From NCBI RefSeq assembly GCF_013122565.1, contig NZ_CP053258.1: a stretch of DNA of 64,000 nt, one strand, 5' to 3'. The notes beneath the pieces are model-generated. The model searched no databases, was not told the origin of the DNA, and was given only the letters and a program-made list of their open reading frames with translations. How positions within the stretch are numbered: position 1 is the stretch's first letter; each line of letters starts with the position of its first letter. Positions 48,325 to 48,349 of this stretch are shown one piece after another. This DNA is from Escherichia coli (lineage in GTDB: Bacteria; Pseudomonadota; Gammaproteobacteria; Enterobacterales; Enterobacteriaceae). A program made the translations under genes and the position numbers.

Positions 48325-48349
48325 ATTCTGCAGACAGTGTCTGCAGAAT
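48325..48349. repeat. 25-bp perfect palindrome ATTCTGCAGACA-G-TGTCTGCAGAAT between convergent yhcH and yhcG; likely bidirectional terminator hairpin; same family as the repeats inside yhcG
   Basis: Seen directly; 12-bp arms around a single central base; shares the GAATTCTGCAGAC core with the copy at 49122..49154. Confidence 0.55.

Follow-up and report, generated by a model that had tools for sequence, protein, structure and literature searches.

A palindrome between yhcG and nanQ of Escherichia coli is probably an extragenic satellite of a nucleic-acid element of the YhcG/DUF1016 gene family

REP/BIME elements, which are associated with RAYT transposases, are short palindromes at gene 3' ends that are tied to one nuclease-type gene, with copies flanking that gene; they are dispersed in the genome and have a GTAG head and an imperfect palindrome of 35-40 nt, and RAYT is an HUH transposase. 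Rickettsia palindromic elements (100-150 bp) are in-frame palindromic DNA tolerated in protein regions where the fold is not disturbed, and are found in many unrelated genes of one genus. Intrinsic terminators combine a G+C-rich stem-loop with a U tract. The operators lacO2 in lacZ and galOI in galE, and the C-box autoregulation of restriction-modification systems, make use of palindromic sites inside or beside the gene, with paired sites hundreds of bp apart. Integron attC sites are conserved in structure and variable in sequence, have conserved ends, lie at gene borders and bracket a module in pairs. Quasi-palindrome template-switch hotspots are an established mutagenesis mechanism of E. coli. 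The YhcG/DUF1016 proteins form a very large, uncharacterised nuclease family, listed by PADLOC as defence candidate PDC-S02, and their genes turn up frequently in restriction-modification and defence islands, in prophages and on conjugative elements. In the literature they figure only as predicted PD-(D/E)XK nucleases with a Holliday-junction-resolvase-like fold, and their genes often adjoin type I restriction-modification loci and occur on mobile elements (PMC1189080, PMC9881135, PMC4316617). Here we describe a palindrome, copy 4, next to yhcG in a 64-kb stretch of E. coli DNA (the whole of which is referred to as the window), together with the related units inside the gene and their counterparts in other prokaryotes. 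The best explanation of copy 4, which we consider probable as a whole, is that it is an extragenic satellite of a nucleic-acid element belonging to the YhcG/DUF1016 gene family.

The locus shares with REP/BIME the association of short palindromes with a gene 3' end and with one nuclease-type gene that they flank. It differs in that the yhcG palindrome occupies one locus per E. coli genome and has its main copy inside the CDS, in that copy 4 has neither the GTAG head nor the imperfect 35-40 nt palindrome, and in that the protein concerned is a PD-(D/E)XK nuclease. Like the Rickettsia elements, the DUF1016 element is in-frame palindromic DNA in a protein region where the fold is left undisturbed, but it measures only 25-31 bp and is confined to one homologous site of one gene family in many phyla. 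The likeness to intrinsic terminators lies in a stable stem-loop within a short gap between convergent genes, and the stem of copy 4 (11-12 bp) is that of a G+C-rich stem-loop. A U run 3' of this stem is absent on both strands (+ tail TCGAAACAG, - tail CTTTAAAACG), and a terminator consensus scan called neither copy 4 nor its B2 version (see below), so that the word 'terminator-like', used in a preliminary description of this DNA, is apt for the hairpin and not for the rest. Because the U tract is missing, copy 4 is not a canonical terminator; it further differs from one in having the sequence of a coding-region element in frame with the upstream ORF. The Rfam covariance models gave no meaningful match in the window region or in six related loci, and in the searchable literature (yhcG, DUF1016, PDC-S02) neither a description of the palindrome nor published 3' ends at the site were found. 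Since the element fails the intrinsic terminator, REP/BIME, Rickettsia-type and Rfam tests and is undescribed in the searchable literature, it appears to lie outside the known kinds.

Copy 4 (ATTCTGCAGACA-G-TGTCTGCAGAAT; 48325-48349, assigned to neither strand) is a perfect palindrome of 12+1+12 with a single central base, G. The convergent genes nanQ (yhcH; 47841-48305, + strand), the final gene of the nan operon, and yhcG (48365-49492, - strand; stop codon at 48365-48367) leave a gap of 59 bp, in which copy 4 stands 19 nt past the stop codon of the former and 15 nt past that of the latter. By an arithmetic estimate, about 0.004 perfect palindromes with 12-bp arms are expected in 64 kb of random sequence. 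The pattern ATTNNNCAGACNNNGTCTGNNNAAT has four matches in the 64 kb (48325, 49087, 49126 with one mismatch, and 49165), compared with 0.01 expected from shuffles. Perfect inverted repeats with arms of at least 10 number about ten in the window; three belong to the yhcG-locus family, and those outside it include typical terminators with A/T-run flanks. As the pattern matches are far above those in shuffles and perfect inverted repeats are few in the window, the 25-bp palindrome is real and not a product of chance.

Copy 4 and the internal units have a common register of 29 nt, and the exact core in common with the nearest unit is GAATTCTGCAGA (12 nt), the 13th base being different. Beyond the stop codon of yhcG, copy 4 keeps the frame of the gene and, if translated, would read I-L-Q-T-L-S-A-E. 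It has the stem of ~12 bp, the 3-nt loop, the (A)ATT...AAT(T) ends and the CA-N-TG centre of the family element; since it lies past the stop codon and is untranslated, it is not at the linker position of the ORF and is classed as a satellite, as are the copies that other taxa have in the 5' UTR or 3' of the gene. Folded as RNA, it gives a dG of -24.6 kcal/mol on the + strand and -20.5 on the - strand (z -4.6 and -3.1, respectively). The preliminary description had reported a perfect 25-bp palindrome in the gap between convergent yhcH and yhcG, which is borne out, and a core shared with the internal repeats, which is true of 12 nt and ends there. Its statement that the extragenic copy and the coding repeats are, unusually, one sequence family agrees with the four pattern matches and with a covariance model (R1, see below) that finds exactly these four. 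On the + (nan-sense) strand the copy-4 hairpin can be extended to ~23 pairs (48309-48362) via the flanks UUAGUUCGUUUU and GAAACAGCUGAA; the variation between E. coli strains is in the right-hand flank.

The yhcG product (375 aa) combines DUF1016_N with a PD-(D/E)XK nuclease domain, YhcG_C, and is a match to the PADLOC defence candidate PDC-S02 (E 1e-135). Its C-terminal nuclease domain resembles those of NucS/EndoMS and Can2/Card1; no match was found in NCBIfam, and a PDB sequence search yielded none at E below 0.1. Three internal units on the - strand follow each other at a spacing of 39 bp (13 codons). Unit 1, the first in the protein (49165-49189; sense ATTCGCCAGACAGTGTCTGGCGAAT), encodes I-R-Q-T-V-S-G-E; unit 2 (49126-49150), an imperfect palindrome and the nearest to copy 4 in sequence, encodes I-P-Q-T-P-S-A-E; unit 3 (49087-49111) encodes I-W-Q-T-L-S-A-K and has, as does copy 4, the extra flank AAAG/CTTT. 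The differences between units are paired changes (CGC/GCG, TGG/CCA, CTG/CAG), by which the self-complementarity of each unit is kept and the amino acids are altered. Unit 2 pairs better on the + strand, antisense to yhcG (16 pairs including U.G), the mismatches being on the sense strand. In the AlphaFold model of YhcG, pLDDT is <50 at residues 104-118 and 120-131, inside the stretch encoded by the three units, and this stretch separates the helical N-terminal part from the rest of the protein; going by the model, the palindrome is predicted to encode a disordered linker.

The DNA upstream of yhcG is variable. The conserved upstream neighbour in the window and in Salmonella is gltD (49676-51094, - strand), which is found at 183 bp (49493-49675) in the window, in the other inspected non-K-12 E. 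coli and in the Salmonella locus. In K-12 (L208 2498-2685) its place is taken by yhcF (DUF1120), with which a fimbrial-type cluster ends, and this cluster also adjoins the yhcG remnant of strain GF43. The 15 or so residues before the first palindrome (~85-101 of YhcG; columns ~100-120 of alignment A1, just upstream of 49190) occur as two old haplotypes, a KNLRQMRLFYLFFQ-type and an RNLWQ[IF][RK]xFYICFQ-type, both of them present in E. coli and in Salmonella or related genera; this hints at balancing selection or at conversion tracts, with the palindrome at the centre. A small RNA, G0-10703, has been reported as divergent from or antisense to the yhcG 5' UTR in K-12, which corresponds to the gltD-yhcG intergenic region at 49493-49675 (PMC7967276).

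A pattern scan of one genome per species gave at least 120 loci in Proteobacteria, Firmicutes, Bacteroidota, Acidobacteriota, Myxococcota, Verrucomicrobiota, Cyanobacteria, Woesearchaeota and others, archaea included. Almost all YhcG/DUF1016 (PDC-S02) nuclease genes that were examined carry a palindrome at the corresponding position. The element is a palindrome of 25-31 bp whose stem of ~12 bp encloses a 3-nt loop, with conserved AATT at its ends and CA-N-TG at its centre. Its position within the CDS is fixed, in the predicted disordered linker that joins the helical N-terminal part to the remainder of the protein. Among the 143 matches listed, 95 are in frame and at the same HMM profile position of DUF1016 homologs, the others being beside DUF1016 genes, lone, or due to chance; also among the matches listed, several of the scanned loci have tandem copies 33-57 bp apart, with no helical phasing in the spacing. 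The three stem pairs that the pattern leaves unconstrained are all Watson-Crick in 61 of 93 copies among the matches listed, compared with 1/64 by chance. Residue 2 and residues 7 and 8 vary together in the way that base pairing demands, third codon positions being involved (e.g., Leu-CTC with Gly-GGA and Glu, Leu-TTG with Ala-GCA and Lys, and Gln-CAA with Val-GTT and Glu).

A pattern-free sample, in which gut and low-G+C taxa prevail, was drawn from viral contigs and consisted of 75 distinct DUF1016 genes, fetched by nuclease-domain peptide patterns only; the site was mapped by HMM as the stretch between the equivalents of F93 and W141. The median palindrome score at this homologous site was 10, whereas windows of the same size elsewhere averaged 4.2 (median of the per-gene best, 7), and in 57 of the 75 genes the site outscored every other window. 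The palindromes of different subfamilies are wholly different in sequence (e.g., ATTCTCGTATCACTGATACGAGAAT, GTGTCACCACTGGTGACAC and CAGATTGTGAACGCATGCGTTCACAATCTG), with the symmetry, the AATT ends and the CA-N-TG centre kept. In alignment A4 (56 viral-contig sequences) all 12 stem pairs have two-sided changes and 90.8% of the cells are paired, compared with 60.2% after shuffling (0 of 500 shuffles as high), counts that lean towards structure because the alignment is centred on the best palindrome of each gene; the control-window comparison over the 75 genes is the fairer test. The innermost pair lacks covariation, as expected for a 3-nt loop.

The covariance model R1 was built from 56 palindromes of viral-contig DUF1016 genes and contains no E. 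coli copies. Run on the 64-kb window, it found exactly the four copies of the yhcG locus (E 2.6e-10 to 9e-4), namely unit 1 (E 2.6e-10), copy 4 (36.7 bits, E 9.5e-9, at 48322-48352), unit 3 (E 9e-8) and unit 2 (E 9e-4), the next best hit having an E of 1.8. Copy 4 thus fits a model of the element built from unrelated genes, and the element is conserved as a structure, the base-for-base covariation of which drags the encoded amino acids along. Because a perfectly paired palindrome is kept at one codon position across bacteria and archaea while the protein changes so as to maintain the pairing, the DNA or RNA at the site is more constrained than the peptide. The idea of a repeat dispersed in the E. 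coli genome, raised in the preliminary description, has to be given up, as the window holds no further copies at the sensitivity of the covariance model and BLAST finds 1-4 places per genome. The opposite possibility, that the motif occurs only here, applies to E. coli in so far as there is one locus per genome, but not beyond, as the motif is widespread across species and tied to DUF1016 genes.

Mismatches are few in the stems (30 of 677 pairs), the rest being Watson-Crick. In two data sets the sense strand has G.T and A.C mismatches in the ratios 9 vs 13 and 6 vs 13 (15 vs 26 overall), and since G.T is no commoner than A.C, a sense-strand RNA structure is disfavoured; that candidate (G.U 15 vs A.C 26 over the two data sets) was found unsupported. 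The pattern of the stems would fit a palindrome acting at the DNA level (ssDNA hairpin or cruciform, with the strands equivalent) or arms kept alike by template switching, and on balance the comparisons favour a DNA-level hairpin or cruciform for the family element. Units of one gene differ mid-stem yet stay self-complementary, which favours intrastrand pairing over readout of the sequence by a dimer. As the element is present in archaea and bacteria alike, a trans partner would be universal machinery or the encoded protein itself.

Extragenic copies are found at other loci as well. In Clostridia the 5' UTR of the DUF1016 gene contains a copy, which is preceded by a TTGAAT-17-TATAAT promoter and followed by the ribosome-binding site. 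In the viral set, L161 and L199 have 5' copies, L153 and L198 have copies 4 and 14 nt after the stop codon, respectively, and L133 has two at a distance of 1.6 kb upstream. As a rule an extragenic copy is similar to the one inside its own gene (L161, L199, L133, L046/L010, L113 and E. coli), while the 5' and internal copies of L050 are of different sequence types. Among the matches listed, ~14 perfect palindromes are in loci without a DUF1016 homolog, several of them intergenic and some beside type I restriction-modification genes; by analogy with the B2 strains of E. coli (see below), many lone palindromes may be footprints of lost DUF1016 genes.

Several loci of this set have features of their own. 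In a Legionellales genome bin (L008 4089-4136) two perfect family palindromes are fused head to tail in an intergenic position with an overlap of 2 nt; no DUF1016 homolog was found in this 8-kb locus. In L020 (~165-260) and L102 (1618-2109) lone or paired family palindromes stand beside hsdM-like and hsdS-like ORFs without an intact DUF1016 gene. The L102 palindrome corresponds to aa 24-31 of a small ORF of 163 aa, which at its 3' end overlaps the hsdS start. The Clostridial loci L046 (7271-7574) and L050 (reverse complement, 3988-4753) are 82-91% identical in promoter, 5'-UTR palindrome and downstream flank, their DUF1016 genes are very different, and the promoter region of L050 is tandemly duplicated; on sequence comparison the gene body seems to have undergone allelic replacement while its surroundings stayed fixed. 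An exact cassette exchange at the Clostridial 5' palindrome was unsupported, the upstream breakpoint between L046 and L050 being ~47 nt past the palindrome.

Statements on the E. coli population are based on BLAST summaries and about a dozen inspected loci. The orthologs of Salmonella, Citrobacter and Kluyvera have one internal unit each, and the Salmonella locus, read as DNA, has no downstream palindrome. Given that the gltB-gltD-yhcG order is common to Salmonella and that a single unit and no downstream copy are present there, yhcG with its internal palindrome is ancestral and copy 4, which is specific to the Escherichia lineage, is a later addition. Of the two directions considered in the preliminary description, intragenic spread of an extragenic palindrome is contradicted by the internal unit of these three genera, by the Salmonella locus without the downstream copy and by the family-wide internal palindrome, and the reverse, an extragenic copy derived from an intragenic one, is upheld, the intragenic palindrome being ancestral and present across the DUF1016 family.

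The yhcG alleles of E. coli have one, two or three units (349, 362/370 and 375/382 aa, respectively). All E. coli alleles examined have the same copy 4 arms, one compensatory pair excepted, the nearby intergenic bases vary, and the central base is G or C. In strain MS1679 copy 4 has CTCCAG/CTGGAG, a compensatory double change that matches an internal unit of the 382-aa allele except for the central base. Every copy 4 variant of E. coli equals, or almost equals, one of the internal units, with which copy 4 still exchanges sequence. Unit 1 follows a stepwise compensatory path: CGC/GCG (window), CAC/GCG (K-12) and CAC/GTG (E. albertii).

According to BLAST, E. coli genomes have 1-4 places each, the listed B2-type (yhcG-less) genomes having one each; ~950 of 5,426 complete genomes match nanQ plus palindrome only, and the inspected ones (e.g., Nissle 1917) are without yhcG. 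In B2 strains the nanQ-gltD distance is 67 bp, and a lone palindrome (ATAAATTCGCCAGACA-C-TGTCTGGCGAATTTAT) stands at the orthologous place, ~13 nt from the gltD stop codon. The 28-nt core of this palindrome equals internal unit 1 and not the usual copy 4; it has 16-bp arms and T-rich flanks and, as the only hairpin between gltD and nanQ, is in these respects like an intrinsic terminator.

In the type strain of E. albertii yhcG is truncated to 125 aa, with the nuclease domain lost, and the junction is a hybrid palindrome, with a unit-3-like left arm (TGGCAG) and the right arm and flank from copy 4, whose recombination partner there is unit 3. Copy 4 thus recombines with internal units, with loss of the nuclease domain. 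In strain GF43 the yhcG remnant stops exactly at the palindrome edge, where foreign DNA follows. The palindromes are not the endpoints of all nuclease-domain deletions in E. coli: strains A30 (L214 ~895-915) and 48 (L215 ~815-835), in which most of the YhcG nuclease domain is gone, used AAGATG microhomology, a decay route independent of the palindromes. Since decay of yhcG is seen in several lineages of E. coli, selection on the locus of copy 4 may be weak.

The sequence data on family membership, distribution and covariation contradict three other readings of the repeats. An ordinary bidirectional intrinsic terminator, the likeness of which to the coding repeats would be coincidence or convergence, suits a strong hairpin (z -4.6 on +, -3.1 on -) between convergent genes, but is very improbable in view of the absent T run, the lack of a call by the consensus scan, the A/T-run flanks of true terminators in the window, the 29-nt register shared and in frame with the internal units, the score of copy 4 as a family member under R1, and variants that track the internal units. 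Tandem in-frame copies inside yhcG plus one outside might also be expected if an extragenic mobile palindrome (REP-like or a miniature transposable element) had invaded the coding region; such an invasion is highly improbable, as other copies were found neither in the window (R1) nor at other E. coli loci (at the sensitivity of BLAST), DUF1016 genes throughout the family and in many phyla have the internal palindrome at a homologous position, and the orthologs have one internal unit, with no external copy in the Salmonella locus read as DNA. Selection on the peptide motif I-x-Q-T-x-S-x-E, with the DNA palindromy as a by-product, would explain why the motif recurs in one large subfamily. Other subfamilies, however, keep the palindrome with ILVSLIRE, VSPLVTQ or IVNACVHN, the residue pairs obey Watson-Crick rules down to third codon positions, the region is predicted to be disordered, and copy 4 and the UTR copies are untranslated, so that this reading is extremely improbable.

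The main rival of a satellite with a role of its own is a recombination scar without function, i.e., a leftover or stray duplicate of an internal unit that does nothing for transcription or yhcG and owes its symmetry purely to mutational processes (quasi-palindrome template switching, gene conversion). The copy 4 variants that equal internal units, the hybrid junction of E. albertii, the lone copy at the B2 deletion site, the absence of terminator features, the decay of the locus in several lineages and the neutral look of the mismatches (G.T not favoured over A.C) all agree with a scar. Palindromy and covariation could indeed persist through template switching or gene conversion without selection on copy 4. 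We nevertheless consider a scar somewhat unlikely, because the arms are invariant save for one compensatory pair in the examined E. coli alleles while the flanking intergenic bases vary, independent lineages have acquired similar border copies, and the lone copy of B2 strains has been lengthened to 16-bp arms with T-rich flanks. Alternatively, copy 4 might be a second putative binding site of YhcG (as duplex, cruciform or RNA hairpin), which together with the internal sites would autoregulate the gene or block convergent nan transcription. This accords with the usual resemblance of extragenic copies to the internal copy of their own gene, with the Clostridial copies between promoter and ribosome-binding site, with the presence of the element in archaea and bacteria, which requires a trans factor to move together with the gene, and with the likeness of the nuclease domain to the structure- or mismatch-specific NucS/EndoMS. 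It is nonetheless doubtful, since the units within one gene differ mid-stem, so that recognition would not be purely by sequence, the tandem units are spaced 33-57 bp apart without helical phasing, and the 5' and internal copies of L050 differ in type.

Under the preferred reading, that of a satellite of the DUF1016 element, copy 4 would have arisen by duplication of an internal unit and would have been kept like the internal units via gene conversion or template switching. Template switching would explain the perfect Watson-Crick arms, the one-step compensatory double changes, the uncorrected 3-nt loop and the lack of a G.T preference; it is, however, a mutational mechanism and not a function, and leaves the retention of the element at one site across the whole family unexplained. 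At its present place copy 4 may serve as a 3'-end hairpin of the convergent nan and yhcG transcripts, either as a stabiliser or as a weak terminator, a proposal to which we give somewhat less than an even chance. With lower confidence still, the family element may be a DNA hairpin or cruciform that acts in cis on the gene containing it. Its likeliest role would be that of a putative recognition or autoregulatory site for the encoded NucS/Hjc-like nuclease, and the extragenic copies at gene borders would be extra sites of the same kind as the internal element. A DNA structure acting in cis would give a gene that lands in foreign operons a self-control independent of context.

Such an arrangement would fit the self-control of a potentially toxic nuclease, as in the intragenic operators and C-box systems. 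It differs from these in that the mid-stem of the DUF1016 element covaries freely even among the units of one gene, which points to pairing and not to sequence readout, and in that the internal site is universal and the promoter-proximal one occasional; any binding by YhcG is putative. The resemblance to attC sites lies in the conserved structure and ends with variable sequence, the location at gene borders and the pairs of sites bracketing a module, whereas the DUF1016 element is far shorter, perfectly paired and inside an ORF, with no integrase or other recombinase nearby. A wider proposal, which we regard as rather unlikely in its entirety, is that DUF1016/YhcG genes carry a built-in DNA hairpin or cruciform recognised by their own NucS/Hjc-like nuclease. 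This portable cis element within the ORF would control, tether or trigger the enzyme and double as a recombination site for gaining, losing and swapping modules and whole genes, with border satellites such as copy 4 as footprints.

For E. coli, the palindrome family explains a local hotspot of variation, comprising the one to three linker units, the deletion of the nuclease domain and the lone gltD-nanQ palindrome in B2 strains. For annotation, lone intergenic palindromes of the DUF1016 type can be footprints of lost DUF1016 genes. A nucleic-acid constraint that exceeds the constraint on the peptide is rare for a cellular protein-coding gene, and the palindrome offers a concrete handle on what the DUF1016 nucleases recognise or how they are controlled.
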